Assembly (NCBI RefSeq): GCF_037042905.1
Contig: NC_087245.1
Coordinates: 34,226,001-34,290,000 of the forward strand
Direction: 5' to 3'
DNA from: Lytechinus pictus
Taxonomy: Eukaryota
DNA: 64,000 nucleotides
The translations under genes and the position numbers were made by a program. Numbering within the stretch: position 1 is the first letter of the stretch; each line of letters begins with the position of its first letter. This document shows positions 1 through 47,730 of the stretch, piece by piece. The notes below the pieces were generated by a model that saw nothing but the letters and a program-made list of their open reading frames with translations, ran no database searches and was not told the DNA's origin.

Positions 1-3000
1 GAATTTCCAATGAAGATTTTTTATCTAGTCGACTTGGTTGTAGAAGCTTCTCTTCAAACCTATGTCCAGATGTATTGTCATTCCAGTCAGACCTGCAACA
101 TAAACACGAAATTGATATTACAATATAGTTTGGTTCTGACTGTTTGGCATTGAATATATTAAACATGCACCATGTAGATCTAGAATGAAAAAAAAACACG
201 TGATGGAATGTTATCATCCTGTTTGTTGGTATTTATATTTATGACCTAGATCTATCAAAAGAAAATATCAAACAAATGTTGTTGCTAGTTTGATTATGAT
301 CATCGATTTTAGCCTCAGTATATACATTAATTGTCTAAAGTCCCTTTCATGTATCTCTAAGATTCACGGCAACTTTACTCAAACCTATGTCTCCACCACT
401 TTATCAAGTCAAAAGTGCATAGCTATGTGGTTTTGTTATAAAATGTCAAATCAAAATTACGAAATTTGAATAACAGCAATGTTAATAACGAATGGTTAGA
501 TTTAGACTTAAACCAGCAATTGGTTTGTATATATACAGAATTTGTCAAAAGAGTTAAAATGAAACAAAACTTACTGCAATAATTCAGACGAACGAGACGA
601 TGATCATGTGCATAATTATTAAACATAATGGCTCAACGCAAAAACGAATGATCGTACGAGAGACTCGACGAATGAACGAGTGGCTGAACGTATACTTTTT
701 GAATATATGTATTAACAGTTATTTTTTCGCTAGCTGAAAGTATAACGTCAGAAGGCAAAGAGCTGAACGATTACAACCTCAACCTTTTTTTTAAACAGGT
801 CTTACTATCACAGTCATGTTGAAATTAAGTCATCTTTGGATGAAACTGCATCAATCTTTCCGAGATTATATCTACCCCAGCAAGTTTTAGTCAGGCACCC
901 ATTGGGGCCCTAGTTGTAGGATTGTTTAATTTGAATTTGAATTTGAACTAGATTATACACAAAATTATCTTTTTCATTTTAAAATGACCAACATTATTAT
1001 CGCTATTATAACCATCATCAACACCATGCGGTAAACATTTTGGGGATTACTTATTTACTTATGTTTTATCTAGATCTACTAACAGAATGAAAGTTATGCC
1101 TACATCTATGCCATGTATTCTGCGACTGTTACCATCTGTGCCTTTGTATGCCCCTATGGCCCTTTCCCTTCTATAATCCACGATTCTTTGAGCAACAACC
1201 AAGTGTTAAGTATTTATTTTACGTATATAACATAAATATAAAACAGGTTTTCAGTTTTGTCAACATGGCAATACTTTTCTTCCATGAGGTCCATATTGAT
1301 AACGATTTCTACATGTAGATCTATTACTACATGTGCGTGGGACTGTTGTTATAACTTCTGTCGTACAAGAATTACGAGAATGGCACATAATAAATCTAAG
1401 CATATTAAGACGAGATCTACAATGAGGAAGAATTGTAATTCAAAACTATTATTGTCCTTGTCCACATATTGACTTTGAATAGGTCTATTGCTTTTTGTCT
1501 GAATACCGATCATCTTAGACCTAAATATTTACGAACCACCCAATCTCACTCACACTTGACTTTAATACTATTGAGGATTACCATGGGGAAAAATTATCCA
1601 CGGGGTTTAGAACTTTGTTATGGGACTGTGCACTGAACCATACTATTTTCCTTATAAGTAAAGTAGAAATTTAAAAAAGGGTGCGCATAATAGGCATGGC
1701 ATAATCAAATATTATATAAAATTACTTACTTATAGCACTTAAATCCTCCCGCAGTCAGATGAATAGTGGATCGGGCAGCAAGCTGCCCTAAAATCAACCA
1801 AACGAAAAAAAAAATTATCAAATAGACAAAATCAATGTAATAAATCTCACCTGGTAAGCTTTCGTGACGGATACTCGTACTTGGGCAAACGTGGTGTCTG
1901 TGTCTTTTGGATACGAAACCGATTAACGCCCGAATAACGGAATATCATTCATGCTTGCTACGATAATTTCACCTGTCAAATCTTGACATGGGAAAGCATT
2001 ATTACCCAGGAAAGGCGCCGGGGTATAGGGGCAAGACGATTTAGAGATGACGTCGGTTTTCTCCTCAATTGAATAATAGTGGTCTAATGGAGTTAAATGA
2101 CCCAACACGTTACTTTAATGTTTTTCTTTTATTATTCATGTGTGTATTTTCTCCTCTTGTAATTTTCATTACATACTTGAAAAAAATCATCGGAGGCAAC
2201 GCCCCGCCACTCCCTTCTGCACCGCCCCTGTAAGGAAGTACGCCGGATCCGAGCTAACGAACATTGCAACGAGATTTGTCGGGGAAAGCCTTACCACCTT
2301 TTTCTTTTTTCAAAAAAGTTGTAAAGCTTTCGGCACATAAACATTAAAAAATATTCAAATGAATTCGATTACCCGTAGGTGACAACACAGCAAATTTCTT
2401 GATATGACCCAATAACATTTATGGAGATAGGCTAAGATCAAGCTTCGGTCAGGCTCCTATGGAGGGACCCTATCATTTTGCCTAATTAACTTACTCTACG
2501 AATCCTGGCAATAAAACCTAACCGTAACCCATATCCATAAAATGTTAAAGTTTCATTAAGATCAGTAAGTGATATTGCCGTATTGTTCTAGGGGTAAAAT
2601 GGACTCACTCATACAGCAACTTGGTCAGCCTGGCATCTGTCCTCTCTCTCTGACATCGTCATGCATCCACAGGACCAAACAAAAATTTCCCTTTGGATCC
2701 AGTGATAAAGTATTTCTCCGTTGTGTCTCTGTTCCCTGATGTTCACAATATCAAGTTCAACTTGACAAATCAAGGGGAGAACAACCGTCCAGAGACCCAT
2801 CAACAAACCTCCCGTGAGATTCGGATTAGTCTCGGCGATGCTCTGCCTTGGGAATGGTGTTTATCTAGTGCGCACGCAAAAAAATGTAGATATCTCTTAT
2901 AGAAGAATATTGTTAACTAATTCTGCATCTGGAGTCCTTCCTAATAATATTGAACCGTATGAATATTAGGAAAGTATCGCCAAAGAATGGTACCTAATGG

Positions 3001-3150
3001 TGTTTTTCTCCGTGTCCATAGTCTAATGGATATCAAGCATTTAGTCAGAACTCGGCAGGTCTTGTCTATATTTCTCAATTTCATAATTGGCGGAGGCGTG
3101 ACATTGTCCATGTATGTAGTGAGGTCGACGATGAATAAATTAGAACACAA
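1..3150 (-). pseudogene. Multi-exon pseudogene copy 1, putative ADP-ribosyltransferase-like (PHYHIP-C-like) domain
   Basis: Minus-strand GT-AG boundaries define exons ending at 2609, then 2469-2373, 1972-1851, 1787-1730, 1650-1554, one starting at 1520 and one starting at 92. Spliced translation includes ...VSVTKAYQ|GSLLPDPLFI(fs)TAGGFKCYK|KIVWFSAQ...SQY..., with stops and frameshifts. Confidence 0.6.
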
Positions 3151-4348
3151 ACTTCAACGGGAATCGAGTCTTAAAAGTTGAAACATACTTTTCACTCCAT
3201 GTCCATATTTCGAAACAAGTTCCAGATAACTTGAGGACTCCGAATTCCGTGAAAACTGTGGAATTTAAATGAAACACAAAAAAATGATTATGAATTCCGA
3301 TGATGATTACAAATACCGGAACAATACGAAGAGCACAAAATAATGACAATCGTTGTATTGGAAGACACACATATAATATTCACTGCAGTTTTAACTTGTA
3401 CATATGTTGTTAATTTTTGTTAATAAAGTCAGAATGAAACGAATTCTACTTCTGCGAGATTTATTGGCACGATTGAATAAGTTAAATAATACTTAACGCA
3501 GGTTCCCAGAAGAATATCAGTTAACACTGATCAAGATCTAAAGTACAAGCTTAAGGCAAGTCTTCAGACAAATTTGGAGAAGGAAGACAACTTTTCCTCA
3601 CACTAGTCAAGCAAACATACTACAAAACAAAGTAATTCTATATGTTTTAATAAAGCACTACCAAACTTTTGAACTAGATCACCTTGAAAGTGTTGGCACG
3701 TTGACACAAAAATGTTCCGAGGGCCGCATTTCCAGAACCCGACAATCCTAGACCTGCATTCACCTTTTCTATTAACAAGATTTTTCTACTGGGACATTAT
3801 GTCTTTTATCAGCCACTCTGCTGTTGAGAATGAAAGAATGGAAATAAAAACATTTTAATGGCTGTAACGGTTAGTTAGGAAGAATAGAAGAAGGGTTAAG
3901 GAATATTATAACATGCAAAGAGAGTAATGCCAATGGAAGACTGCCAATAAATGCTGAAGTAGCTATCAACTAAATCAAGTTATTGATATGTTAATCGTAT
4001 AAAGACAATGTTAAAAAGGGCGCTGGAAAACATCCATCAAAAGTTGAACTGGCTATTCTGGGCAAATAAATTAAAGTTATTATTAAGAGTAAGAGTAAAA
4101 TCATATATTTCATATGAGCAGGAAAGTTGAAAAACCGCCGATAATCGCTGAATTAGTTACCCTTGGTGAAAAACACATAGAGCTTGAAAAGAGAATAAAG
4201 ATCGTCAGATATACAAGTTACGAAAATGGCATGCCAATGTAACAAAAACACAATAATTTGATCATATATGATTTAAAACTAGATTTTTAACTGTACTTTC
4301 CCATTCTGTTCAGCCGCTTTGCATTTCGAGAATGGAAGAGAAAAAATA

Positions 4349-6559: not shown

Positions 6560-9500
6560 ATTGTTCTCTGATTAAAGGGTATTGGAGCTAGTGGTAGATA
6601 GAAGGAGAGACTGCTATCCAATGAAAGGTTGACGAAGCTATTGCTAAATAGTGGTAAAAGGAGGGAGACTAGTTGCTCTCTGATAAGGGTGACAAAACCA
6701 GTGGTAGAAGGAAGAATGCTATCTGATGGAGGAGTGACGAAGCTATTGGTAGACGAAAGGGAATTAGTTGCTCTCTAAACAAAGGGTGACGAAGCTAGTG
6801 GTAGAAGGACATTATTAGTATCTGATAAAAGGGTGACGAAGCTAGTTGTATAAGGAAGGACATTGTCGGATGAAAGGATGATGATGCTAGTGGTAGATGG
6901 AAGGATACTAGTTGCTCTCTGATGAAAGGGTGACGAAGGTTGCGTTATGATGAAAGGGTTACAAAGAGGAAGGACATTATCTCATGAGAGTGTGACGAAA
7001 CTAGTGATAGAATGAAGGACACTTTTTGATGAAAGGGTGACGAAGCTAGTGGTAGGTGGAAGGAGACTAGTTGTCCTCTGATGAATGGGTGGTGAAGATA
7101 GTGGTAGATGGAAAGAGACTAGTTGCTCTCTGGTGAAAGGGTGACGAAGCTAGAGGTAGATGGAAGGAGACTAGTTGCTCTCTGATAAAAGGGTGTTGAG
7201 GTTATTGGTAGATGGAAGGAAAGTAATTGCTCTCTAATGAAATGGTGATGAACCTAGGCATAGACGGATGAACACTTGTAATTGATATCGGACGGAAGGA
7301 TTAAGCAGCTAGTGGTAGATGAAGGAAACTAGTTGCTCTCTAATGGAAGGGTGACGAAGCTAGTAGAAGATGAGAGGAAACTAGTTCCTCTCTTATGAAA
7401 GAATTACAAAGCTAGTGTTAGAAGGAAGGAGGCAATTTGATGGATGAAAGGGTGACAAGCTAGTGGTCGATACAAGGAACCTAGTTGCTATCTGATGAAA
7501 GGGTGACGAAGCTTGTGGTTAATGGAAGGAGACTAGTTGTTCTCTGATGAAAGGGTGACAAAGTTAGTGGTAGACGGAAGGAGACTAGTTGCTCTTTGAT
7601 AAAAGGGTGTTAAGGTTAGTGGTAGAAGGAAGGAAACTAATTTCTCTTTGATGGGAGGGTGATGAAGCTAGTGGTAGTGGAAGGAGACTAATTGCTCTCT
7701 AATGAAATGGTGGCGAAGCCAGTAGGAGATGAGGGGGACTAGTTGCTTTCTGGTGGAAGGGTGATGAACCTAGGCATGGACGGAAGAACACTAGTAATTG
7801 TTATCGGAAGGAATGATAAAGCAGCTTGTAGTAGATGGGAGGATACTAGTTGCTCTCTAATGAAAGGGTGACGAAGCTAATGATAGATAGGGTAAACTGC
7901 TCTCTGATTAAAGGGGGACACGAAGCTAGTAGTAGATGGGAGGAGACTAATCGCTCTCTGATGGAAGGGTGACGGAGCTAGTGACAGATGGAGGAGAATA
8001 GTTGCTCTCAGAGAACGGGTGACGAAGCTAGTGGAAGATAGGAGACTAGTTGCTTTCTGGTGAAAGGGTTACGAAGCTAGTGTTAGATGAGGGAGACTAG
8101 TTGCTCTCTGATGAAAGGGTGACGAAGCTAATGATAGATGGGAGGAGACTAGTTGCTCTCTGATGGAAGGGACACGAAGCTAGTAGTAGATGGGAGGAGA
8201 CTAGTGGTTCTCTAATAAAAGGGTGATGAAGCTAGTGGCAGATTGAAGAACACTTTTTGCTCTCTAATGAACGGGTGACGAAGCTAGTGGAAGATAGAAG
8301 GAGACTAGTTGCTTTCTGGTGAAAGGGTTACGAAGCTAGTGTTAGATAAGGGAGACTAGTTGCTCTCTGATGAAAGGGTGACGAAGCTAGTGGCAGATGG
8401 AAGGAGAGTAGTTGCTCTCTGATAAAAGGGTGACGAAGCTAGTGGAAGATGGAAGGAGAGTAGTTGCTCTCTGGTGAAAAGGTGACGGAGCTAGTGGTAG
8501 ATGAAGGAGAGTAGTTGCTCTCTGGTGGAAGGGTGACGAAGCTAGTGGTAGAAGGAAGGAGGATATCTGATGAAAGGGTGACGAAGCTAGTAATAGATGA
8601 AGGAAACTAGTTGCTCTCTAGTAAAAGGGTGGCGAAGCTAGTGGCAGATTGAAGATCACTTGTTGCTCTCTAATGAAAAGGGTGACGAGGCTCTTGGTGA
8701 AAGGAAAGAGACTAGTTGCACTCTGATGAAAGGGTGACGAAGCTAGTGGAAGATGGAAGGAGACTAGTTGTTCTCTAATGAAAGGGTGACGAAGCAAGTG
8801 GTAGGTGAAGGAAACTAGTTGCTCTCTGATGAAAAGGTGACGAAGCTGGTGGTTGATGAAAAGAGACTAGTTGCTTTCTGGTGAAAGGGTAACGAAGCTA
8901 GTGTTAGATGAGGGAGACTAGTTGCTCTCTGATGAAAGGGTGACGAAGCTAATGATAGATGGGAGGAGACTAGTTGCTCTCTGATGAAAGGGACACGAAG
9001 CTAGTAGTAGATGGGAGGAGACTAGTGGTTCTCTAATAAAAGGGTGATGAAGCTAGTGGCAGATTGAAGAACACTTTTTGCTCTCTAATGAACGGGTGAC
9101 GAAGCTAGTGGAAGATAGAAGGAGACTAGTTGCTTTCTGGTGAAAGGGTTACGAAGCTAGTGTTAGATAAGGGAGACTAGTTTCTCTCTGATGAAAGGGT
9201 GACAAAGCTAGTGGCAGATGGAAAGAGAGTAGTTGCTCTCTGATGAAAGGGTGACGAAGCTAATGGAGGATGGAAGGAGAGTAGTTGCTCTCTGGTGAAA
9301 AGGTGACGGAGCTAGTGGTAGATGAAGGAGAGTAGTTGCTCTCTGGTGGAAGGGTGACGAAGCTAGTGGTAGAAGGAGGATATCTGATGAAAGGGTGACG
9401 AAGCTAGTAATAGATGAAGGAAACTAGTTGCTCTCTAGTAAAAGGGTGGCGAAGCTAGTGGCAGATTGAAGATCACTTGTTGCTCTCTAATGAAAAGGGT

Positions 9501-10730
9501 GACGAGGCTCTTGGTGAAAGGAAAGAGACTAGTTGCACTCTGATGAAAGGGTGACGAAGCTAGTGGAAGATGGAAGGAGACTAGTTGTTCTCTAATGAAA
9601 GGGTGACGAAGCAAGTGGTAGATGAAGGAAACTAGTTGCTCTCTGATGAAAAGGTGACGAAGCTGGTGGTTGATGAAAAGAGACTAGTTGCTCTCTGATG
9701 AAAGGGTGACGAAGCTAGTGGTAGACGGAAGAGACTAGTTGCTCTCCGATGAAAAGGTGACGAAGCTTGTGGTTGATGGAAGGAGGCTATCTGATGAAAG
9801 GGTGACGAAGGTAGTGGAAGATAGAAGGAGACTAGTTGGTCTCTAATGGAAGGTGCCGGCTCTCTGATAGGATGGTGACGAAGCTATTGGTAGAAAGAAT
9901 GAGGCTATCTTATTGAAAGGGTGACGAAGCTAGTCGTATATGGAAGAGACTAGTTGCTCTCCGATGAAAAGGCGACGAAGTTAGTGGTAGATGGAAGGAG
10001 GCTATCTGATGAAAGGGTGACGAAGGTAGTGGAAGATAGAAGGAGACTAGTTGCTCTCTAATGGAAGGTGCCAGCTCTCTGATAGGATGGTGACGAAGCT
10101 ATTGGTAGATGAATGAAACTGGTTGCTCTCTGGTGAAAGAGTGACGAAGCTAGTGAAAGATGGAAGGAGACTAGTTGCTCTCTGATGAAAGGGTAACAAA
10201 GCAAGTGGTAGATGAAGGAAACTAGTTGCTCTCTGGAGAAAGGGTGACGAAGCTAGTGGCAGATTGAAGAACAGTTGTTGCTCTCTAATAAAAGGATGAC
10301 GAGGCTCTTGGTGAAAAGAAAGAGACTGGTTGCTCTCTGATGAACAGGTGACGAAGCTAGTGGTAGATGGAAGGAGACTAGTTGCTCTCCGATGAAAGGG
10401 TGACGAAGTTAGTGGTAGATGGATAACGACTAGTTGCTCTTTAAAATAAATGATTATGAAATTAGTAGAAAATGGGAGGAGACTAGTTGCTCTCTGATGA
10501 AAGGGTGACGAAGTTAGTGGTAAATAGAATGAGGCTGGTTTAAGTGTGACGAAGCTAGTGGTAGATGGATAACAACTAGTTGCTCTTTTAAGAAAGAATT
10601 ACGAAATTGGTAGAAGATGGGAGGAGACTGGTTGCCCTCTAATGAAAGGGTGACGAAGCTAGCAGTAGATGGAAGGAGACAAGTTGCTCTTTGATAGATG
10701 GGTGACAAAGCTAGTGGTAGATGGAATGGG
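6560..10730. repeat. ~52-bp tandem satellite, array 1
   Basis: Consensus ctagttgctctctgatgaaagggtgacgaagctagtggtagatggaaggaga, tandemly repeated with variants over about 4.2 kb. Confidence 0.97.
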
Positions 10731-10938: not shown

Positions 10939-13900
10939 TTAAGGATGTAATTGAATGTTCAGTTGCATTGAACCTCCTTGGTTGCATGAGATCGTTCGAT
11001 AATGATGTGAAATTGCTTTTGTTCCACGGGAAAAATAATTCTCGAAGAGCTGGGTAGAATTCCCAATGAAGATTTTTTTTTCTAGTAGACTTAGTTGTAG
11101 AAGCTTCTCTTCAAACCTATGTCCAGATGCATTGTCATTCCAGCCAGACCTGTACAATAAACAAGAAATTGATATTACAATATAGTTTGGTTCTGACTGT
11201 TTGGCATTTAATATATAAAACATGCACCATGTAGATCTAGAATGAAAAAAAAACACGTGATGGAAAATTATCACTTGATAATGATCATCCTGTTTGTTAG
11301 CATTTATATTTATGACCTAGATCTATCAATAGAAAGTATCAAACAAATGTTGTTGCTAGTTTGATTATGATCATTGATGTTAGCCTCAGTATATACATTA
11401 CTTGTCTAAAGTCACTTCTATGTATCTCTAAAATTCACGGCAACTTTACTCAAACCTATGTCTCCACCGCTTTATTAAGTCAAAAGTGCATAGGTATGTG
11501 GTTCTGTAATAAAATGTCAAACCAAAATTACGAAATTTGAATAACAGCAATGTTAATAACGAATGGTTAGATATATACTTACACCTGCAATTGGTTTGTA
11601 TATATACAGAATTTGTCAAAAGAGTTAAAATGAAACAAAACTTACTGCAATAATTCAGACGAACGAGACGATGATCATGTGCATAATTATTAAACATAAT
11701 GGCTCAACGCAAAAACGAATGATCGTAAGAGAGACTCGACGAATGAACGAGTAGCTGAACGAATACTTTTTGAATATATGTATTTTTTTTTTTTTGCTAA
11801 TTGAAAGTATAATGTCGGAAGGCAAAAAGCTGAACGATTATAAACAACGCGCAACCTCAACTTTTTTTTTCAAATCAGGTCGTACTATCAGTCACGTAGA
11901 AATTAAGTCACCTTTGGATGAAACTGCATCAATCTTTTCGAGATTATATCTACCCCAGCAAGTTTAGTCAGGCACCCATTGGGGCCCTAGTTGTATGATT
12001 TTTTTTATACAAAACCTGGAATTAAACGTCGCCTCACAAATGAGCTCGATAAAATTCATATGTTCATTAAAATCATGAATCATATACTTTTCTCCCGGTA
12101 AAAAAAAACTCCTGAAGAACTTTGATCAATTTAAATGACTTTGCTAAGGTTGACAGGGAGATGAAATTATTAAAATTATAATTTTATTTGACTGTCCAAA
12201 AGCCTAATGGCTAGTGCTAAGCAGATATTTTTGTTATTCCATACCCGAAACATAAACATAAAAAATCATATTAATAAAATTGCTCAGTTATGATAACGGT
12301 TTCTAAGTGTGATATACATGTATGAATTATGCTTTATATCTAGAATATAAAAAAAAATTCATAAAAAAAAACATTATTATCGCTATTATAACCACCATCA
12401 TCGCCATGTGGTAAAAAATTTGGGGGATTATTTATTTAATTATGTTTTATCTAGATCTACTAACAGAGAGAAAGTTAGGCCTATATCTATGCCATGTATT
12501 CTGCGACTGTTACCATGTGTGCCTTTGTATGCGCCTATGGCCCATTCCCTTCTATAATCCACGATTCTTTGAGCAACAAACATGGTAGGGTACAGTTTTT
12601 ATTTTCAGTATATAACAAAATATAAAACAGGTTTTCAGTTTTGTCAACATAACAATACTATTCTTCCATGAGGTCATTATTGGTAATGATTTCTAGAGCT
12701 ATTACTGCATGTGCGTGGGACTGTTTTTGTTATAACTGCTGTCGAATAAGAATTACGAGAATGGCACATAAAAAATCTGAGCATATTCAGACGAGATCTA
12801 CATTAAGGAAGAATTGTAATTCAAAACTATTATTGTCCTTGTCCACATATTGACTTTGAATGGGTCTATTGCTTTTTGTCAGAATACCGATCATCTTAAA
12901 CCTAAATATTTATGAACCACCCAATCTTACTCACACTTGACTTTCTATTGAGGATTACCCTGGGGAAAATTCTCCACAGAGTTTACAACTCTGTTATGGG
13001 ACTGTGCACTGAACCATACTATTTTCCTTATGATAATAGTAAAAGTAGAAATTCTAAAAAGGGTGCGCATAATTGAGATGGCATAATCAAATATTATACA
13101 AAATTACTTACTTATAGCACTTAAATCCTCCCGCAGTCAGATGTATAGTGGATCGGGCAGCAAGCTGCCCTATAATCAACCAAACTAAAAACAATAATAA
13201 ATAATCAAATAGACAAAATCAGTGTAATAAATCTCACCTGGTAAACTGTCGTAACGGATACTCGTACTTGGGCAAACGTGATGTCTGTGTCTTTTGGATA
13301 CGAAACCGATTAACGCCCGAATAACCGAATATCATTCATGCTTGCTACGATAATTTCACCAGCCAAATCTTGACATGGGAAAGCATTATTACCCAGGAAA
13401 GGCGCCGGGGTATAGGGGCAAGACGATTTAGAGATGACGTCGGTTTTCTCCTCAGTTAAATAATAGTGTTCTATTGGAGTTAAATGACCCAACATGTTCC
13501 TTTAATTGTTTTTCTTTTATTAATCATTTTCTATTTTCTCCTCTTGTAATTTTCATTAAATTCCTTAAAAAAAACATCACCGGAGGCCACGCCCCCGTCC
13601 CCTTCCTGCGGCACCGCCCCTGTAAGAAAGTACGCCGAATCCAAGCTAACAAACAATGTAACGAGATTTGTCGGGGAAAAGCCTTACCACCTTTTTCTTT
13701 TCAAAAAAGTTGTAAAGCTTTCGGCACATAAACATAAAAAATTATTCAAATGAATTCGATTACCCGTAGGTGACAACACAGCAATCTTCTTGATATGACA
13801 CTACAACACTTAAAGGATATCGGCTAAGATCAAGCTTCGGTCAGGCTCCTATGGGGGACCCTATCATTTTGCCTAATTAACTTACTCTACAAAACCTGGC

Positions 13901-14550
13901 ACTAAAACCTAACCGTAACCTATATCCATAAAATGTCAAAGTTTCATTAAAATCAGTAAGTGATATTGCCGTATTGTTCTAGGGGTAAAATGGACTCACT
14001 CATACAGCAGCGTTGGACAGCATGGCACCTGTTCTCTCTCTCTCTCTCTGTCTGACATCGTCATGCATCCACAGGACCAAACAAAAATTTCCCTTTGGAT
14101 CCAGTGATAAAATATTTTTCCGTGGTGTCTCTGTTCGCTGATGTTCACATTATCAAATTCAAATGATAAATCAAGGGAGAACAACCGTCCAGAGACCCAT
14201 CAACAAACCTCCCGTGAGATTCGGATTAGTCTCGGCGATGCTCTGCCTTGGGAATGGTGTTTATCCAGTGCGCACACGAAAAATAGAGATCTGTCCCAAA
14301 AGAATATTGTTAACTGATTCTGCATCTGGAGTCCTTCCTAATAATATTCAACCGTATGAATATTAGGAAAGTATCGCCAAAGAATGGTACCTAATGGTGT
14401 TTTTCTCCGTGTCCATAATCTAATGGATATCAAGCATTTTGGTCAGAACTCGGCAGGTCTTGTTTATATTTCTCAATTATATTATTGGAGGAGGCGTGAC
14501 ATTGTCCATGGATGTAGTGAGGTCGACGATGAATGAACTAGAACACAAAC
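10939..14550 (-). pseudogene. Multi-exon pseudogene copy 2
   Basis: Paralog of copy 1 with the same exons and the same TAA (13310-13312). One acceptor is mutated (cag to ctg near 13361). Confidence 0.6.
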
Positions 14551-15784
14551 TTCTACGGGAATCGAGTCTTAAAAGTTGAAACATACTTTTCACTCCATGT
14601 CCATATTTCGAAACAGGTTCCAGATAACTTGAGGACTCCGAATTCCGTGAAAACTGTGAAATTTAAAGAAAACACACACAAAAATTATTGTAAATACCAA
14701 TGATGATTACGAATACCGACAATAAGAAGAGAACAAAATAATGACAATCGTTATATTGGAAGACACACATAAAAAATTCACTGCATATGAAACTTGTACA
14801 TATGTTGCTAATATTTGTTAATAAAGTCAGAATGAAACGAATTCTACTTCTGCGAGATTTATTGACACGATTGAATAATTTAAATAATACTTAACACAGG
14901 TTCTCAGAAGAATATCAGTTAACACTGATCAAGATCTAAACTACAAGCTTAAGGCAAGTCTTCAGACAAATTTGGAGAAGGAAGACAACTTTTCCTCACA
15001 TTAGTCAAGCAAACATATTACAAAACAAAGTAATTCTATATGTTTTAATAAAGCACTACCAAACTTTTGAACTAAATCACCTTGAAAGTTTTGGCACGTT
15101 GACACAAAATTGTTCCGAGGGCCGCACTTCCAGAACCCGACAATCCTAGACCTGTATTCACATTTTCTATTAACAATGTTTTCTTACTGGACATTCTGTC
15201 TTTTATCAGCCACTCTGCTTTTGAGAATGAAAGAACAGAAATACAAACATCATGTTTAATGGCAGGGTACATTGGAATACTATCTATAGAAGCTGTAACT
15301 TCTAGTTAATAACTTCTAGTTAGGAAGAATAGAAGAAGGATTAAGGAATATTATAACATGCAAAGAGAGTAATGCCAATGGAAGACTGCCAATAAATGCT
15401 GAAGTAGCTATCAACTAAATCAAGTTATTGATATGTTAATCGTATAAAGACAATGTTAACAAAGGCGCTGGAAAACCTCCATCAAAAGATGAACTGGCTA
15501 TTCTGGGCAAATAAATAAAAGTTATTATTAAGAGTAAAATCATATATATCATATGAGCAGGAAAGTTGAAAAACCGCCAATAATCGCTGAATTAGTTACC
15601 CTTGGTGAAAAACGCATAGAGCTTGAAAAGAGAATAAAGATCGTCAGATATACAAGTTACGAAAATTGTATGCCAATGTAAAAAAAATAATAATTTAATC
15701 ATATATGATTTAAAAGTAAATTTTAAACTGTACTTTCCCATTCTGTTCAGCCGCTTTGCATTTCGAGAATGGAAGAAAAAAATA

Positions 15785-19759: not shown

Positions 19760-22700
19760 TTGTTCTCTGATTAAAGGGTATTGGAGCTAGTGGTAGATAG
19801 AAGGAGAGACTGCTATCCGATGAAAGGTTGACGAAGCTATTGCTAAATAGTGGTAAAAGGAGGGAGACTAGTTGCTCTCTGATAAGAGTGACAAACCAGT
19901 GGTAGAAGGAAGAAGGCTATCTGATGAAAGAGTGACGAAGCTAGTGGTAGACGAAAGGGAATTAGTTGCTCTCTAAACAAAGGGTGACGAAGCTAGTGGT
20001 AGAAGGACATTATTAGTATATGATAAAAGGGTGACGAAGCTAGTTGTATAAGGAAGGACATTGTCGGATGAAAGGATGACGATGCTAGTGGTAGATGGAA
20101 GGATACTAGTTGCTCTCTGATGAAAGGGTGACGAAGGTTGCGTTCTGATGAAAGGGTTACAAAGAGGAAGGACATTATCTCATGAGAGTGTGACGAAACT
20201 AGTGATAGAATGAAGGACACTTTTTGATGAAAGGGTGACGAAGCTAGTGGTAGGTGGAAGGAGACTAGTTGTCCTCTGATGAATGGGTGGTGAAGATAGT
20301 GGTAGATGGAAAGAGACTAGTTGCTCTCTGGTGAAAGTGTGACGAAGCTAGAGGTAGATGGATGGAGACTAGTTGCTCTCTGATAAAAGGGTGTTGAGGT
20401 TATTGGTAGATGGAAGGAAACTAATTGCTCTCTAATGAAATGGTGATGAACCTAGGCATAGACGGAAGAACACTTGTAATTGATATCGGACGGAAGGATT
20501 AAGCAGCTAGTGGTAGATGTAGGAAACTAGTTGCTCTCTAATGGAAGGGTGACGAAGCTAGTGGAAGATGAGAGGAAACTAGTTCCTCTCTTATGAACAA
20601 GTGACAATGCTAGTGGTAGAAGAAAGGAGACTATCTGATGAAATGGTGTCGAAGCTATTGGAAGATGGAAGGAAACTAGTTACTCTCTAATGAAAGAATT
20701 ACAAAGCTAGTGTTAGAAGGAGGCAATTTGATGGATGAAAGGGTGACAAGCTAGTGGTCGATACAAGGAACCTAGTTGCTATCTGATGAAAGGGTGACGA
20801 AGCTTGTGGTTAATGGAAGGAGACTAGTTGTTCTCTAATGAAAGGGTGACAAAGTTAGTGGTAGATGGAGAACGACTGGTTGCTCTTTAAAAAAATGATT
20901 ACGAAATTAGTAGAAGATGGATGGAGACTAGTTGCTCGCTGATGAAAGGTTGACAACGCTAGTGGAAGATGGAAGGAGACTAGTTGCTCTTTGATAAAAG
21001 GGTGTTAAGGTTAGTGGTAGAAGAAGGGAAACTAATTTCTCTTTGATGGGAGGGTGATGAAGCTAGTGGTAGTGGAAGGAGACTAATTGCTCTCTAATGA
21101 AACGGTGGCGAAGTCAGTAGGAGATGAGGGGGACTAGTTGCTCTCTGGTGGAAGGGTGATGAACCTAGGCATAGACGGAAGAACACTAGTAATTGTTATC
21201 GGAAGGAATGATAAAGCAGCTTGTAGTAGATGGGAGGAGACTAGTTGCTCTCTAATGAAAGGGTGACGAAGCTAATGATAGATAGGGTAAACTGCTGTCT
21301 GATGAAAGGGGGACAGGAAGCTAGTAGTAGATGGGAGGAGACTAATCGCTCTCTGATGGAAGGGTGACGGAGCTAGTGACAGATGGAGGAGAATAGTTGC
21401 TCTCAGAGAACGGGTGACGAAGCTAGTGGAAGATAGGAGACTAGTTGCTTTCTGGTGAAAGGGTTACGAAGCTAGTGTTAGATGAGGGAGACTAGTTGCT
21501 CTCTGATGAAAGGGTGACGAAGCTAATGATAGATGGGAGGAGACTAGTTGCTCTCTGATGGAAGGGACACGAAGCTAGTAGTAGATGGGAGGAGACTAGT
21601 GGTTCTCTAATAAAAGGGTGATGAAGCTAGTGGCAGATTGAAGAACACTTTTTGCTCTCTAATGAACGGGTGACGAAGCTAGTGTTAGATGAGGGAGACT
21701 AGTTGCTCTCTGATGAAAGGGTGACGAAGCTAGTGGCAGATGGAAGGAGAGTAGTTGCTCTCTGATGAAGGGGTGACGAAGCTAGTGGAAGATGGAAGGA
21801 GAGTAGTTGCTCTCTGGTGAAAAGGTGACGGAGCTAGTGGTAGATGAAGGAGAGTAGTTGCTCTCTGGTGATAGGGTGACGAAGCTAGTGGCAGAAGGAA
21901 GGAGTATATCTGATGAACGGGTGACGAAGCTAGTAATAGATGAAGGAAACTAGTTGCTCTCTAGTAAAAGGGTGGCGAAGCTAGTGGCAGATTGAAGATC
22001 ACTTGTTGCTCTCTAATGAAAAGGTAGACGAGGCTCTTGGTGAAAGGAAAGAGACTAGTTGCACTCTGATGAAAGGGTGACGAAGCTAGTGGAAGATGGA
22101 AGGAGACTAGTTGTTCTCTAATGAAAGGGTGACGAAGCTAGTGTTAGATGAGGGAGACTAGTTGCTCTCTGATGAAAGGATGACGAAGCTAGTGGCAGAT
22201 GGGAGGAGAGTAATTGCTCTCTGATGAAAGGGTGACGAAGCTAGTGGAAGATGGAAGGAGAGTAGTTGCTCTCTGGTGAAAAGGTGACGGAGCTAGTGGT
22301 AGATGAAGGAGAGTAGTTGCTCTCTGGTGGAAGGGTGACGAAGCTAGTGGCAGAAGGAAGGAGGATATCTGATGAAAGGGTGACGAAGCTGGTGGTTGAT
22401 GAAAAGAGACTAGTTGCTCTCTGATGAAAGGGTGACGAAGCTAGTGGTAGATGGAAGAGACTAGTTGCTCTCCGATGAAAAGGTGACGAAGCTGGTGGTT
22501 GATGAAGAGACTAGTTGCTCTCTAATGAACGGGTGACGAAGCTATTGGTAGAAAGAATGAGGCTATCTTATTGAAAGGGTGACGAAGCTAGTCGTATATG
22601 GAAGAGACTAGTTGCTCTCCGATGAAAAGGTGACGAAGTTTGTGGAAGATGGAAGGAGGCTATCTGATGAAAGGGTGACAAAGGTAGTGGAAGATAGGAG

Positions 22701-23285
22701 ACTAGTTGCTCTCTAATGGAAGGTGACGGCTCTCTGATAGGATGGTGACGAAGTTATTGGTAGATGAATGAAACTGGTTGCTCTCTGGTGAAAGGGTAAC
22801 GAAGCTAGTGGAAGATGGAAGGAGACTAGTTGCTCTCTGATTAAAGGGTAACAAAGCAAGTGGTAGATGAAGGAAACTAGTTGCTCTCTGGTGAAAGGGT
22901 GACGAAGCTAGTGGCAGATTGAAGAACAGTTGTTGCTCTCTAATAAAAGGGTGGCGAGGCTCTTGGTGAAATGAAAGAGACTAGTTGCGCTCTGATGAAA
23001 GGGTGACGGAGCTAGTAGAAGATGGAATGAGACTGGTTGCTCTCTGATGAACAGGTGACGAAGCTAGTGGTAGATGGAAGGAGACTAGTTGCTCTCCGAT
23101 GAAAGGGTGACGAAGCTAGTGGTAGATAACAACTAGTTGCTCTTTCAAGAAAGAATTACGAAATTGGTAGAACATGGGAGGAGACTGATTGCCCTCTAAT
23201 GAAAGGGTGACGAAGCTAGCAGTAGATGGAAGGAGACAAGTTGATCTTTGATAGATGGGTGACGAAGCTAGTGGTAGGTGGAAGG
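19760..23285. repeat. ~52-bp tandem satellite, array 2
   Basis: Same consensus and same flanks as array 1; about 3.5 kb. Confidence 0.97.
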
Positions 23286-23501: not shown

Positions 23502-26500
23502 TTAAGAATGTAATTGAATGTTCAGTTGCATTAAACCTCCTTGGTTGTATGAGATCGTTGGATAATGATGTAAATTTGATGTTGTTTCACGGGAAAAATT
23601 ACTCTCGCAGAGCTGGATAGAATTTCCAATGAAGATTTTTTTATAGTCGACTTGGTTGTAGAAGCTTCTCTTCAAACCTATGTCCAGAAGTATTGTCATT
23701 CCAGCCAGACCTGTAACATAAACAAGAAATTTATATTACAATATAGTTTGGTTCTGACTGTTTTGGCTTTTATCATATAAAACATGCACGATGTAGATCT
23801 AGAATGAAAAAAATAACACGCGATGAAATGTTATCACTTGATAATGATCATCCTGTTTGTTGGTGTTTATATTTATGACCTAGATCTATCAAAAGAAAAT
23901 ATCAAACAAATGTTGTTGCTAGTTTGATTATGATCATCGATGTTAGCCTCAGTATATACATTAATTGTCTAAAGTCCCTTTCATGTATCTCTGAGATTCA
24001 CGGCAACTTTACTCAAACCTATGTCTCCACCACTTTATCAAGTCAAAAGTGCATAGCTATGTGGTTTTGTTATAAAATGTCAAATCAAAATTACGAAATT
24101 TGACTAACAGCAATGTTAATAACGAATGGTTAGATTTAGACTTAAACCAGCAATTGGTTTGTATATATACAGAATTTGTCAAAAGAGTTCAAATGAAACA
24201 AAACTTACTGCAATGATTCAGACGAACGAGACGATGATCATGTGCATAAGTATTAATCATAATGGCTCAACGCAAAAACGAATGATCGTACGAGAGACTC
24301 GACGAATGAACGAGTGGCTGAACGTATACTTTCTGAATATATGTATTAACAGTTATTTTTTCGCTAGCTGAAAGTATAACGTCAGAAGGCAAAGAGCTGA
24401 ACGATTATAAATAACGCGCAACCTCTACCTTTTTTTAAACAGGTCTAACTATCACAGTCATGTTGAAATTAAGTCATCTTTGGATGAAACTGCATCAATC
24501 TTTCCGAGATTATATCTACCCCAGCAAGTTTTAGTCAGGCACCCATTGGGGCCCTAGTTGTAGGATTTTTTTTCTAACAAGCTGGAATTAAACTACGCCT
24601 CACAAATGAGCTCGATAAAATTCATATGTTTATCAAAATTATGAATCATATACTTTTCTCCCGGTAAAAACTCCTGAAGAACTTTTATCAATTTACATGA
24701 CTTTGCTAAGGTTGACGGGGAGATGAAATGATTAAAATAATGATTTTATTTGACCGTCCAAAAGCCTTCTGGCTAGTACTAAGCAGATATTTGTGTTATT
24801 CCATCCCCGAAACGTAAACATAAAATATCTTTATTTCATAATAATAAAATTGCTCAGTTATGATAATGGTTTCTAAGTGTGATATAATGTACATGTATGA
24901 ATTATGCACTATAACTAGATTATACACAAAATTATCTTTTTCATTTTAAAATGACCAACATTATTTTCGTTATTATAACCATCATCAACACCATGCGGTA
25001 AACATTTTGGGGATTACTTATTTACTTATGTTTTATCTAGATTTACTAACAGAATGAAAGTTATGCCTACGTCTATGCCATGTATTCTGCGACTGTTACC
25101 ATCTGTGCCTTTGTATGCCCCTATGGCCATTTCCCTTCTATAATCGACGATTCTTTGAGCACCAACCAAGTGTTAAGTATTTATTTTACGTATATAACAA
25201 AAATATAAAACAGGTTTTCAGTTTTGTCAACATTTTCTTCCATTTTCTTCCATGAGGTCCATATTGATAACGATTTCTAGATCTATTACTACATGTGCGT
25301 GGGACTGTTGTTATAACTTCTGTCGTACAAGAATTACGAGAATGGCATATAATAAATCTAAGCATATTAAGACGAGATCTACATTGAGGAAGAATTGTAA
25401 TTCAAAACTATTATTGTCCTTGTCCACATATTGACTTTGGATAGTTCTATTGCTTTTTGTCAGAATACCGACCATCTTAGACCTAAATATTTATGAACCA
25501 TCCGATCTTACTCACACTTGACTTACTATTGAGGATTACCATGGGGGAAAACCTCCACGGGGTTTAGAACTTTGTTATGGGACTGTGCACTGAACCATAC
25601 TATTTTCCTTATAAGTAAAGTAGAAATTCAAAAAAAGGGTGCGCATAATTGACATGGCATAATCAATTATTATACAAAATTACTTACTTATAGCATTTAT
25701 ATCCTCCCGCACTGTAAGGTGGATCGGGCAGCAAGCTGCCCAAAAATTAACCAAACAAAAATAAAAATAATAAAAGAGACAAAATCAATGTAATAAATCT
25801 CACCTGGTAAAGTTTCGTAACGGATACTCGTACTTGGGCAAACGTGATGTCTGTGTCTTTTGGATACCAAACCGATTAACGCCCGAATGACCGAATATCA
25901 TTCGTGCTTGCTACGATAATTTCACCTGCCAAATCTTGACATGGGAAAGCATTATTACCCAGGAGCGGCGCCGGGTTATAGGGGCAAGACGACATGGAGA
26001 TGACGTCGGTTTTCTCTTCAATTAAATGATAGTGTTCTAATGGAGTTAAATGACCCAACACGTTCCTTTAGTGTTTTTCTTTCATTATTCATTTTTGTAT
26101 TTTCTCCTCTTGTAATTTTCATTAAATACTTGAAAAAAGTATCACCGGAGGCCTCGCCCCCGCCCCCTCCCTGCGGCACCGCCCATGTAAGAAAGTACGC
26201 CGAATCCGAGTTAACGAACAATGCAACGAGGTTTGTCGGGGAAAAGCCTTACCACCTTTTTTTTCAAAAAAGTTGTAAAGCTTTCGGCACATAAACATTA
26301 AAAAATATTCAATTGAATTCGATTACCCGTAGGTGACAACACAGCAATCTTCTTGATATGACACAATAACATTTATGGAGATAGGCTAAGATCAAGCTTC
26401 GGTCAGGCTCCTATGGGGGGACTCTATCATTTTGCCTAATTAACTTACTCTACGAATCCTGGCAATAAAACCTAACCGTAACCCATATCCATAAATGCCA

Positions 26501-27210
26501 ATGTTTCATTAAGATCATTTAGTGATATTGCCGTATTGGTCTAGGGGTAAAATGGACTCACTCATACAGCAACGTTTGTTCAGTCTGGCATCTGTCCTCT
26601 CTCTCTGATTTCGTCATGCATCCACGTTCACAGCATGGACCCTACCATGTGAATTCACAGTATAACGATTTCAGCTCCAAACAAAAAGCTCCTTTCAGAT
26701 CCAGTGATAACGTATTTTTCCATAGCTCCACAAACATGTCAGTGTCCGCTCATATTCATGATATCATAAAATTCAAATTGATAAATCAAGGGGAGAACAA
26801 CCGTCCAGAGACCCATCAACAAACCTCCCGTTAGGTTCGGATTAGTCTCGGCGAAGCTCTGCCTTGAAAATGTTGTCTAGTCCGCACACGAAAAATATAT
26901 CTGTCCAAGAATATTGTACACCGATTCTGCGTCTGTTATTTCTAATAATATTCAACCGTATGAATATCAAGAGTGTGTCGCCAAGAATGTTACCAATGTT
27001 CTTATCTCTTCGTGTCCATAATATTAAAGTAAAAAATAGATGTCAGGCAGTAAGCCAGAACTTGACATTTTTGAGACATCAGGTCTTGTTGGATATAATT
27101 ATTTCTCAAGGTCAACATTGGAGGAGGATTGGCACCGTGGATGGAGTGAGGTCGACCATGGACAAATTGGAAATTCCATCTCTATGTCAATATTTCGAAA
27201 CAAGTTCCAA
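23502..27210 (-). pseudogene. Multi-exon pseudogene copy 3
   Basis: Paralog with the shared TAA (25876-25878). Reads GSLLPDPPYSAGGYKCY|KKIVWFSAQSHNKVLNPVEVFPHGNPQ*. Its 5' exon retains extra sequence at about 26626-26678. Confidence 0.6.
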
Positions 27211-27215
27211 CTGTG
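23620..27215. repeat. Tandem segmental duplication, unit 3 (partial; more diverged beyond about 26620)
   Basis: Collinear with 1-3230. Homology weakens after about 26620 and is lost after about 27215. Confidence 0.9.
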
Positions 27216-29299: not shown

Positions 29300-29697
29300 G
29301 GTAAATTGCCAATTCGTCTACTGCAAACTCGTCCCCTCACCACATGGTCTACTTTTATTTCGTCTAATGCCATTCCGTCTATCAACATTTCTTCTAACAA
29401 CCATTTGGTCCAATAACCATTTGGTCCAATCATCAGTTCGTCTAATCACCCTTTCGTCTCATAACCAGTTGGTCCAATATCCATTTAATTTTCATTCATT
29501 TTGCACAATTAACACTTAGTCCAATTAGACCAAATTATGGACTAAATGGCTATTGGACCAACTGGTTATCAGACGAAGTGGTGGGTGGACGAATTCGCAA
29601 TTAGACCAGGTGGATAGTGGACGAACTGATGGTAGACCAAATTATAGTAGACGAGTTGGCAATTGGACGAAGTGGCATTAGACGAATTGAAAATAAA
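29300..29697. mobile_element. Palindromic MITE with reiterated gtcta/tagac motifs
   Basis: The left half (aattcgtcta, ttggtccaat) is mirrored by the right half (attggaccaa, tagacgaatt). Related fragments at about 42960-43480. Confidence 0.6.
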
Positions 29698-34303: not shown

Positions 34304-34620
34304 TTAGGATGTAGTTATACTGGAATATTTCTGGAGTGTCGGCATTCTCATAATTTCTCTCTTTGCAACATCATCTTCATGCTTCCATGATCGAAGCAAC
34401 ACGAATTCAGCACCAACACAAATGTCCATCGAAGATCCAGTAAAAAATATACTTCCAATAGCTCAACAAATATGTCTCTTGTCCGCTGATATCACAAAGA
34501 TCAAGTGTAAAACGACCGTCCAGAGACCCCATCTACAAACCTCCCGTGAGGTTCGGATAACGTCTCGGCGAAGCTCTGCCGTGAGAGTGGTGTCTATAGC
34601 TCGCACAGAAAAGTGAAGAG
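34304..34620 (-). pseudogene. Diverged relic (copy 4) of the 5' exon of the triplicated pseudogene
   Basis: 34502-34582 matches 2771-2850. The exon ends at a gtgagt donor (34298-34303), as in copies 1-3. Confidence 0.65.
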
Positions 34621-34999
34621 CTTTGTGTCAAAGAAACCTCCAAGATAAATCCAAGAAAACTCAAAGAAAACTGTTCTAAACACATCTCCGTATTCCTTCC
34701 TGTTAAAATCCAAAAATATGATGATTTGCCAACTGCCTTGAGAATAATTTCTGAGGTATAACTATAAATTGCGGAGCAACGATTTTGTTGGACGTGCTAG
34801 ATCTCTCCTCATCTCGGGGAAAAATTATTCCGATTGATTGATCACGTGATAGAAATATGACGTATGAATTTTGTAAACATTGATCACTCGGCGCCAATCT
34901 GCATGACAATTCCCCGATCGGCCGCTCAAAGTTGATTTTTGTTTCTTTCTTTGAAGGGGTAATCCTACGAGTCACTTCTTAGCTTTATTTTTATAGGCA

Positions 35000-40630: not shown

Positions 40631-41244
40631 AATGATAATGATAATGAATAAATAAATACATGTATATGAATAAATGCATGGGTGAATAAGAAATATAAAT
40701 AAATAAATAAATATTTACATTCACACATAAATAAACAAATAAATACATAAACAAATAAATAAATTAACAAAATCAAGAATAGTTAATATCTTCCTCTCTT
40801 TGAACATTTCGTATTCATTTTATTTATTCTATATGTTGTATTGAAGATTTTCTGTCATGGAAGGCTTGAATACCTCTTTGTCGATTAATTTTTGGGGCCT
40901 ACCTCTTCCATACATCCATCTACTTCTCATAGCTATCTTCGTTGGAACACAGCCCACTCCGGTTTTCCCTCTATGTAGTCTACATTGTAAGTTGTAACTA
41001 TGACAATGTGTGAGAGACTAACAGGGGTCAAACGCCTCCCTTACTGTAAAGGGGTCCTTTTAAAGCCATAAATTTATGACACTTATGTTTGAATTTTTTT
41101 GTAGGCAACTTAGTACCCTTTTCATGCTTTTCGGTGAGAATCGTTTAACCTTTTTTATACAGAATTGGCACCCATGTTTGGTTAACAGTCAGAGAAATCA
41201 ATGACAGTATGCCCATCTGTAGCTTTGGGGTTTTCAACTTTTAA

Positions 41245-41828
41245 AGGTCAAGTCCACCTCAGAAAAATGTTTATTTGGACCAATAGAGAAAAATCAGACA
41301 AGCATAATGCTGAAAATTTCATCAAAATCGGATGTAAAATAAGAAAGTTATGACTTTTAAAGTTTCGCTAATTTTGCACAAAATAGTTATTTGCACAATT
41401 TAGTCACATGCAAACGAGAGAATCGATGATGTACCTCACTCACTATTTCTTTTATTTTTTATTGTTCGAATTATACATTATTTCAATTTTTGCAGATTTG
41501 ACAATGAGGACCAACTTGACTGAACCATAAAATGTTAAGCAATGGTAATTCAACATATTCAGGGAGAAATAAAACTTTGTTTCACAGGACAATGAGAAAA
41601 TCAGAATATTTCATATCACGAAATACAAATGAAATAGTGAGTGAGTGATGTCCCTCATTAGCATACCGACCAGGATGTGCATATAACTGTTTTGCGAAAT
41701 TAAGCGAAACTTTAAAATGTCATAACTTTCTTATTTTACATCCGATTTTGATGATATTTTCAGTGTTATGTTGGTTGGATTTTTCTCCTTTTATTCAAAT
41801 CAACTTTATGTTGGGGTGGACTTGTCCT
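41245..41828. mobile_element. TTAA-targeting (Kolobok-like) MITE
   Basis: ttaa|aggtcaagtccacc ... ggtggacttgtcct|ttaa. Long internal inverted arms (aaaatcggatgtaaaataagaaagttatgac). Confidence 0.85.
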
Positions 41829-43063
41829 TTAAACAATCACATCTTAACTTTTAATTGGTCAAGTAATGCCTAATGATATTGAAAACAAAACAACATGAGA
41901 TCAATTTGTCCCTAAAATGCCAGATATGATCAATTTTGAGAAGTAAGAGGATGTAATGTATTTCAATAATTTTGTTTTCTCTTACATGCAGATGTCCCGT
42001 TGAGCTCTAATAGTGCACTACAGCTTGTCACCACACACATTACTTTTTATGATGCACATTGTTTTTTAAATGATATACCTTGATAGTACAACAACCCTCC
42101 ACTGTCACTGTTTTTTTGTTATCTTGTTGGAGCCAATACATTAAGTTATAAGATATTTGCATATGAGGTATACAGGTAACTCTACTTAAGTCGAATGTTT
42201 TGGGATCACAGATATCTCATCTCTGCAAGTTGGAGAAATTTGGTGTAGAAGAGAAATATAATACAAGTTTTTGAATAGTCTGGTATACAATAATTGTTTT
42301 GTTTAAGGCAAATATTTGACTTTAATATGGAAGTTTGACTTAGGCAGAGTTACCTGTAGATACATGTATCTCCCTATCCCACTCTATTCTCTTCTCTCCT
42401 TTTCTGTCAATTTCTCAAATTCACCTCGCTGGTACACAATTCCTATTGTTTTTCTTTCTGAATATTCATTAAAAAAAAAAATTGTATGTCTTACAATGAT
42501 ACGTTATGAGAAAATAATAATGAAATTAATGACATAATATATTCAACATATAAACAATGGAAACAGAACAAAAAAAGGTAATTACTTCATAATTCTTATG
42601 TATGTTTTGAATTTAGATGACTTTAATATTAATTATTCTTTTGCGATAGGCAGATTTTTGTTTATATTTCGTGGGTTATTTTATTCTTATTTTCTTACAA
42701 AGTATTCATTTATGTTACCATATACCATGAACACCCAGAACAGGAATATCCTGTGTCTATAGGCTTATGTTCTTCACAAGACAAAAAATCAGTCTATTTC
42801 AGTCAGGACATGCTCAGCGGAGACTTCCTCTGGCTTTGCGGCATGCCCTACCACCAGGAGGACTGAGAAAAATCATAAAATGTTGAAAAACTCCTCTGAA
42901 ACAGCGGATTTTTCAGTCTAATCTACACCCACTCTGTATACTTTCCATTTTTTTCTCATACCACATGGTCTAATACTATTTCATCTTCAACCAATTTGTC
43001 TACTAACCACTTGGTGAAATAGCAATTTAGCCTATTCAACCCATTATTTGTCTTATATCCAGG

Positions 43064-45461: not shown

Positions 45462-45958
45462 TCATGACTTGCTGGTTTTCTTGAAGATCATTCCCAAAGT
45501 GTTCTTTGAAACTTTTCCAGACTTCCTTGGCTTGGTGTCCTCGAACTCATCTTGAGTAACTCTTTGTTTATGAGCTCGAACTCTTGCTATCCACTCCTTG
45601 CCTTTCTCTCTCGTCTTCTTCTCCTGTTTCACCAACTGATCACCGAGTTCCACGCTCTTCATGTAAAAGCCTGTCTCTCGTTTGACCTGGGAGATCTCAG
45701 TACGGATTCGCTGCTGACGCACCTGTCGTTCGTATTCCAGACGCTCCGCTAGATGTGCCCACTGGAAGCGATGAAGATACTTCAGATTCCACAGCTCCTC
45801 ATAATAGATGCTCCGTTTCCTTCCTCCAATTGGAGTGTTGTTGAATGTCAGGGCAATACTCTTAGCAATCTTTTTGTCCATGAATTCGATCCAGCCTTCA
45901 GTGAAACGCTTGCTTTTACTACCGCCTTTCTTTTTACGGGTCTTGCGGTTAAATTTGT
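45462..45958 (-). CDS. ABT1: Activator of basal transcription 1 / ESF2 homolog, last coding exon
   Basis: Acceptor tttcag at 45959-45964. Translation (D)KFNRK...FTEGWIEFMDKKIAK...LWNLKYLHRFQWAHLAERLEYERQVRQQRIRTEISQVKRETGFY matches ABT1/Esf2. Stop at 45462. Confidence 0.95.
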
Positions 45959-46641
45959 CTGAAAGGAAAATAAGAACATTTTACAAGTTTTTACATTAAA
46001 ATGATTGAAAATGTGCAGTTTCTATTTCAGCCACTGTATTCACTGAAATCCTCAAAATGGCTGCAATGTTAATTTGTAATAAATTAAAGAAACGAGATCA
46101 AAGACCAAGTTGGTTAGTACAAAGAGACAAAAAGTTAAGTTTCTTTCCAATGTGAATATCGAATTGATTTGTGGGGCGTTTCAAATTAAGCAAAACTCAT
46201 GTTAAACAACTTTCTGATTTTACATCTGATTTTGATGAAATTTTCAGAACTGACCCTGTTTGATTACATTTCTCTAATTAAACGAGCTTGCTGTTGGGTG
46301 CAAAAGGGGGTATGATTGGTATTTGAAAATATTACCCTCTAACATTGACAAAAGGATGCAGCTGACATCTGAAATAAATTGCACTTTTAACATGTTTACA
46401 TTTTACAAATTTATTCTTTTTCCAGGCAAAATTTTCAAAGAAAACAAAGATCCTGCTGAGTAATGATGATCATGCCATTGCTCTGGCATCTTTGTAACTG
46501 ACAGACATATATTGCTCTGGAAATCACACTTTTATTGCTTGCTTCCTTTTGTCAAAGTTGCAGAATAGTGATTGCTCACTGCTATAAAAATCCATTATTC
46601 ACGTTTAGCTCTAAAATATTGATTTGGCTATACATTAATAC

Positions 46642-46885
46642 CTTCAGCTTGTAAGAACACGCGTCCAATTTCACCGTATCGCGAGAAGATCTTCTTGACT
46701 CTCTGTGGCCTCATTAGAGGGGGCACTCGGCTCAGGTAGACGATCCCAGGTTTGGATGCCTCCTTTGATAAGCTATCGCCTCCAGATACTTTCAGTGGTT
46801 TATCATCTTCATTCAAGCCTTCATCGGCACCTTCTTCAGAGATGTCATCCAGCTCTGGCTCCATTCCATCTCTATCCTGCTCCAT
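46642..46885 (-). CDS. ABT1: ABT1 coding exon (acidic N-terminus and start of RRM); start codon uncertain
   Basis: MEQDRD...PGIVYLSRVPPLMRPQRVKKIFSRYGEIGRVFLQAE followed by a phase-1 donor (gtatta) that is compatible with the next exon. Confidence 0.9.
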
Positions 46886-47096
46886 CGTTTGGGGGGTTTC
46901 ACTCTTCTCTCTCTGATTGATGCTGCTGAAGAAAGAGTTAAAGAAAATTTTACAAGTGACGGAAAGAGCCAGTGACCGAAGTATAGCTTTGTTACAATAG
47001 AACTTACCGGTACCTGTTGGAAGTTTCATCATTGAAAGTAACAACATCATGCTGCCCTCTATATGCGTCTCGTAGCTTAGCCACTAACAAAGAGGA

Positions 47097-47363: not shown

Positions 47364-47730
47364 AAAAAAGGGTAAAAAATAACTTATGCACTTACCTCGA
47401 TTATATGGATGAAGGTCTATCGTGACACATAATCCTGACATCGAGGCACAAACTGGACCCTCAAAAAAGGAAAAGTTAGACCTCCATGTCGCGTTGGTTC
47501 TCGGTATCGATCGGCCATTTAGTTTTCAATTTTGAAAGAAGGAGAACGAACGAGACAGAACTTTTCCATTTTTTTGAGGGTCCAGTTTGTGCCTTGATGT
47601 CATAATTGTCAGGATTTTGTGTCACGATAGACCTTCATCCATATAATCGAGGTAAGTGCATCCTGACTTATGGATCCTGCTGAGTATCGTCGTAGAAGTA
47701 GAAGTGCATAATTTATTTTTTCCCCTTTTA
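47364..47730. mobile_element. Foldback/MITE with long inverted arms
   Basis: 47386-47477 is the reverse complement of about 47560-47661. The outer arms aaaagggtaaaaaataacttatgcactt and aagtgcataatttattttttcccctttt also pair. Confidence 0.75.

Follow-up and report, generated by a model that had tools for sequence, protein, structure and literature searches.

Probable remains of a spliced gene in three tandem copies in Lytechinus pictus, with a tentative likeness to ADP-ribosyltransferases

The left part of the DNA analysed here (the window, 64,000 nt of Lytechinus pictus contig NC_087245.1) quite probably carries the remains of a real gene of four exons that was triplicated after its death. 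Our data suggest that an intron-containing protein-coding gene, with an ancestral coding stretch of perhaps ~210 codons at the least, would have been inactivated first and then tripled by tandem segmental duplication. The most conjectural step is the identity of its product, which may have been a small domain with the ADP-ribosyltransferase (ART) fold, from a fast-evolving animal family.

The window consists of AT-rich animal DNA (GC 0.33–0.46 per 2 kb), and self-comparison revealed a tandem segmental duplication at positions 1–27210, with a period of ~11–12.6 kb, comprising two full units and part of another and probably extending leftward beyond the window edge. The three duplication copies (A, B and C) are 85–91% identical, and over the gene locus copies B and C are 90–93% identical to copy A, bearing out the three copies claimed in a preliminary description of this DNA. 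Exons 1–4 lie on the minus strand at 12481–13359 in copy B, which has the stop codons of A plus extra stops and indels, and at 25067–25925 in copy C, in which exon 2 is 5 nt shorter, the intron-1 acceptor has been lost (TG in place of AG) and exon 4 contains a frameshift. The duplicated spacers hold a 52-bp minisatellite (7027–10726 and 20067–23285; ~73 and 52 + 11 units), whose arrays are purine-rich with strong GC skew and whose unit is not divisible by three.

The peptides quoted in the preliminary description all occur on the minus strand of copy A, between 1148 and 1877, and canonical GT..AG introns are present at 1850–1788 and 1729–1651. Exon 1 (1851–1972, GC 0.44, with an uncertain 5' border) ends with RVSVTKAYQ at 1851 and is followed by the 63-nt intron 1 (1788–1850), which has a strong donor, a polypyrimidine acceptor and a T-rich interior (GC 0.22). 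Exon 2 (58 nt, 1730–1787, GC 0.50; 53 nt in copy C) runs from GSLLPDPLFI, starting at 1787, to TAGGFKCYK, which contains the GGFK motif and ends at the 1729 donor; the T-rich intron 2 that follows (79 nt, 1651–1729, GC 0.25) opens with a GTAAGT donor and likewise has a pyrimidine tract. Exon 3 (1582–1650, GC 0.41) measures 69 nt in A, one more than in B and C (68 nt each), and contains KIVWFSAQ, which starts at 1649 and includes the IVWFS strand. Introns 1 and 2 thus have about half the GC content of their flanking exons and keep their canonical ends in copies A and B; in copy A we regard both as firm. A third intron is likely in copy A (61 nt, 1521–1581; 57 nt in B and C), with weak sites picked after inspection. 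It would lead into exon 4 (1106–1520), where SQY (1474–1466), RQKL*QQSHAHVVI (starting at 1363, with HAHVV), ENLF (1252–1241) and GP*GH (1162–1148) share one frame.

The peptides and introns stand; the way in which they had been joined is not the simplest. GSLLPDPLFI and TAGGFKCYK share no frame in copy A or copy B, so the earlier reading requires a frameshift. The frame that joins YQ to GS meets stops at 4 of 82 codons when exons 1–3 of either A or B are spliced, and continues through the exons only in copy C, with its shorter exon 2 (1 stop in 80 codons); in every copy, the exon-1 portion of this frame contains a TAA at 1925. An alternative exon-1 frame, open from 1944 with a TGA at 1947, joins exons 1–3 of A and B without a frameshift and gives 74 open codons in A. 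When the third intron is included, copy A yields 130 open codons across all junctions, again without a frameshift, and reaches the SQY frame. Over the whole three-intron splice of copy A, this favoured frame has 4 stops in 212 codons (the other two frames have 16 and 12), and its first in-frame Met occurs at 1513, within exon 4. An alternative using another weak intron is longer, at 162 codons.

Evidence that the gene is dead comes from its disabling mutations. The exon-4 stops at 1351, 1216, 1156 and 1108 are present at the DNA level in all three copies, indicating that the gene was broken before triplication; past 1108 stops become dense, and this position may mark the former natural end of the gene. 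Divergence among the copies shows no codon-position bias (19/26/19 variable sites, p 0.47), exons show no clear advantage over introns in conservation (7–13% versus 9–16% variable columns), and the exon-4 frame contains 3 synonymous versus 31 non-synonymous changed codons. Purifying selection on exon 1 in the no-frameshift frame (4 synonymous and 4 non-synonymous, against 1/7 and 0/8) was considered and set aside: it involves too few sites, in one of 12 comparisons, and disagrees with exon 4. Most likely, the three copies drift neutrally and the locus today does nothing.

Retained introns and shared nonsense codons typify duplicated pseudogenes in tandem segmental duplications. The locus resembles such duplicated, non-processed pseudogenes in its kept introns, disabling mutations common to the copies, neutral divergence and tandem arrangement with a minisatellite spacer. 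Such pseudogenes have a parent gene, whereas no parent was matched here in the protein libraries searched. The claim of a decayed spliced gene in three copies is therefore backed by the intron chain, the GC contrast between introns and exons, the stop deficit of the spliced frame (see below) and the shared nonsense codons. As an object it is a pseudogene in a tandem duplication, which is a common kind.

To which family the gene belonged is a separate question. If it was an ART, exons 1–3 would account for strand 1 (with H-x-S), a helix with GGF at its end, and strand 2 (aromatic-F-S), the elements that bind NAD+ in active ARTs, and exon 4 would supply the rest of the split sheet. According to PMC7955679, members of the H-Y-[EDQ] clade have motif I (Hx[ST]) in strand 1, motif II (a Tyr) in strand 2 and motif III (an acidic residue). 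Read in the no-frameshift frame, copy A has H-x-S at 1866–1858, 28 residues ahead of WFS and in the order of motifs I and II; copies B and C have a Tyr codon at the His position. We take the 28-residue spacing to fit small ARTs. The candidate for the motif II strand (YFA/YFS type) is WFS in 3/3 copies, with Trp rather than Tyr, and no motif III, which would belong at strand 5, was located, there being no family member to align with. Compared with the PARP catalytic domain (PF00644, of the same clade), the locus is alike in the order of a putative motif I (the H-x-S of copy A, no-frameshift frame), GGF turn and aromatic WFS strand and differs from the HG[ST] and Tyr of PARPs in having His in one of three copies, Trp, and a broken gene. 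The strict HG[ST] motif is absent from the spliced exons. The Gln previously placed at the His position comes from the Q-G-S of the earlier frame and, since that frame is blocked in 2/3 copies, is unsupported.

A loose ART motif, accepting any residue at the His and one frameshift, occurs in the spliced exons and is absent from the unspliced window; it arose in 0/20000 shuffles, a figure that overstates the ART case because the pattern was composed after the sequence had been seen. The earlier suggestion of an ART-like protein thus finds agreement in loose motif order and none in profile, structure or homolog searches. Going by motif order only, we would put ART-like ancestry at a little under an even chance overall, and close to an even call on the premise that the gene was real.

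Among known small proteins, the Gig2 family of fish and amphibians is alike, according to PMC3617106, in its size, in an N-terminal stretch weakly resembling the PARP signature and in its lineage-specific duplication; the same paper reports no Gig2 homolog in Strongylocentrotus purpuratus. Our protein searches returned no Gig2 protein. With the PHYHIP C-terminal domain (PHYHIP-C) the locus shares a loose motif order: VFFS-like, SPYG-like and a His before aliphatic residues. Proteins with this domain, whose motifs are VFFS-like and SPYG-like, carry a fibronectin type III (FN3) domain upstream. No PHYHIP family appeared in our Pfam scans at E up to 10 and no N-terminal FN3 was detected here; among the papers listed in literature searches, none assigned PHYHIP-C to the ART fold or reported that the family had expanded in invertebrates. 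PHYHIP-C membership therefore finds no support here, having neither a Pfam match nor a literature link to the ART fold. No support emerged, either, for the immune role suggested earlier. Some uncharacterised fish and invertebrate proteins have a GGFK turn, a WWS-like strand, SRYG and a later HSH strand in the same order as here; our searches returned no such protein, which leaves these as a lead.

That the gene was real and belonged to a family other than the ARTs (an orphan specific to its lineage, say, or a gene for a membrane protein, or a transposon gene with introns, the ART motifs being coincidental) is a serious possibility, though one that we would still wager against. The structural evidence for a gene does not depend on the family, and there was no ART profile match anywhere. 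Pieces of the locus presumably also fit KDZ-type transposases and PHYHIP-C motifs, and this fit of unrelated families to the same pieces shows that short motifs discriminate poorly. Exon 4 encodes a 25-residue hydrophobic stretch with weak transmembrane-type matches (TMEM154, E 0.14; a protocadherin transmembrane segment). Against a non-ART gene stand the lack of any transposase or other family match in Pfam and the ordered G..GF..aromatic-FS motif, which was found in none of the 20000 shuffles. Short introns as a mark of a transposon were considered and dropped, as an intron-like stretch of 82 nt (47007–46926) is also present in a host gene nearby.

Homology searches did not decide between these families. 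Run in full against 1.84 billion representatives, HMMER with an exon-4 profile returned one match, the protocadherin, which is not credible: hydrophobic residues aligned to four transmembrane repeats. Word-seeded searches confirmed 0/7998 candidates (243–2000 aa) at E 1 for the exon-4 alignment and 0/35 (128–410 aa) at E 10 for exon 2 plus the exon-4 frame of copy B. No ART, PHYHIP or transposase family was matched in Pfam (43 translations), in PHROGs and NCBIfam (six translations each) or among PDB sequences. When the power of the Pfam scan was gauged with four open frames of neighbouring genes, one weak match resulted (RRM_1, E 0.2). Queries against these libraries were unspliced frames or single exons, so the blanks are weak evidence with regard to distant relatives; they do tell against any close, intact relative being present among the library proteins. 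An AlphaFold model of the exon-4 frame only was uninformative (pLDDT 36, pTM 0.25), and Foldseek gave 0 matches to the PDB at E 0.001.

Searches of viral and metagenomic DNA were similarly blank. For the exon-4 frame, pattern matches in viral and metagenome contigs were confirmed in 0/43 and 0/342 cases, and exact DNA patterns gave 0 matches. A scan of phage records was also blank. The exon 1–2 frame led, from 18 pattern matches, to four viral loci. ORFs were listed for two of these and one was translated; there the match lies off-frame inside a phage head gene, where 10 exon-2 residues recur by chance, and it was set aside. Two phage loci, L001 (4487–5827) and L003 (4487–5995), are near-identical head-morphogenesis genes with unrelated C-terminal halves and bear no relation to the present finding; we take the C-terminal half of the L001 gene to look like an R-S-E type ADP-ribosyltransferase domain.

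The lack of any credible match, in the 1.84 billion representatives, for a spliced relic exceeding 200 codons suggests a family that is poorly covered publicly. We consider it rather unlikely, though worth stating, that the locus is what remains of a rapidly evolving family of small ART-fold proteins in animals that has yet to be described (with a GGF turn, a WFS strand and a later His strand), subject to tandem birth and death, too divergent for profile libraries, and still represented by intact members in other parts of echinoderm genomes or immediately left of the window. The locus is not assigned to PARP, Gig2 or PHYHIP-C. If the ART fold were found in intact relatives, these would constitute a new animal ADP-ribosyltransferase-like family besides the PARPs, ecto-ARTs, Gig2 and the LRRC9/DUF3715 types, and the exon borders and frames reported here offer a direct route to finding them.

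A more radical alternative is that the locus was never a gene, being duplicated DNA without coding function whose splice-like sites and motifs fell into line by chance. We consider this unlikely. A strict scan for two short introns flanking a small exon, with thresholds chosen after the locus had been inspected, found one chain on the whole minus strand, the locus in copy A; such a strict two-intron chain arose in 6/1000 shuffles of the region. Neither copy B nor copy C qualifies under the rule. The plus strand also has one strict chain, within a simple-repeat array at 57512–58129 (plus) made up of tandem 118–140 bp units, each with a GGTGAG donor-like site and a CT-rich tract. The uniqueness of the intron pair on its strand and the T-rich composition of the introns, at half the GC of the exons, speak against chance. 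So does the stop deficit: exon-wise shuffles matched the 4/16/12 stop pattern in 27/20000 cases, and the deficit of the spliced frame ends abruptly after 1108. The length of the open frame points the same way: under a lax rule allowing any three introns, with the cut-off set at the weakest real splice-site strength, shuffles gave at least 130 open codons in 2/1000 and 7/1000 cases. Exon 4 alone is marginally stop-poor (864/20000 shuffles equal it).

Other observations favour the chance alternative, including the absence of a homolog in any library searched, the lack of a signal of purifying selection and the off-frame phage match. Splice and motif rules were all defined post hoc, with the locus already seen. 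The lax rule picks out eight places in the window with three-intron frames of 106–175 codons: three are the copies themselves, one is an upstream block, one a neighbouring gene, and three are other places. Sites with such lax frames include 30178 (minus) and 2710 and 61256 (plus). Weighing both sides, we retain the dead four-exon gene as the probable explanation. That the locus is instead alive, as a spliced non-coding RNA or short peptide gene using introns 1 and 2, whose canonical ends persist in A and B, is barely credible, given that exons and introns are similarly variable, the first in-frame Met comes so late in the spliced frame and an Rfam scan of positions 1–36000 found 0 families.

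The upstream block (block U, ~650 nt) lies on the minus strand at 2609–3257 in copy A, between an acceptor-like site and a GTGAGT donor, and recurs at 14000–14653 in B and 26562–27211 in C. It is possibly an exon of the same gene. Its reading as clearly coding was dropped, as it has no stop deficit in any frame and mixed synonymous counts. The right edge of the duplication array coincides with the 5' side of block U in copy C, which would leave A and B without the upstream DNA of the original. An older homolog of block U alone (block D) occurs in the same orientation at 34304–34725 (minus; nhmmer E 4e-34), 7 kb upstream of copy C, and here too a GTGAGT donor comes next; exons 1–4 have no homolog beside it. 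Block D may represent an exon duplicated long ago or a piece of a dispersed repeat. Its word-seeded protein search confirmed 0/45 candidates at E 10, the ESM Atlas gave no usable match to it, and Pfam scans of 15 decayed upstream frames found no FN3 match.

Elsewhere in the window, two long open frames occupy 45462–47083 on the minus strand, with the weak RRM_1 match and, near the 5' end, the intron-like stretch mentioned above; we take these to be ABT1/ESF2-like exons. Further open frames at 61172–62807 (minus), two pieces with no match in Pfam, presumably encode the C-terminal portion of a GATA transcription factor. Two related palindromic elements of 600 nt, 71–85% alike and MITE-like, lie at 41233–41833 and 55461–56082, and further MITE-like palindromes are found at 29359–29671 and 47386–47661.
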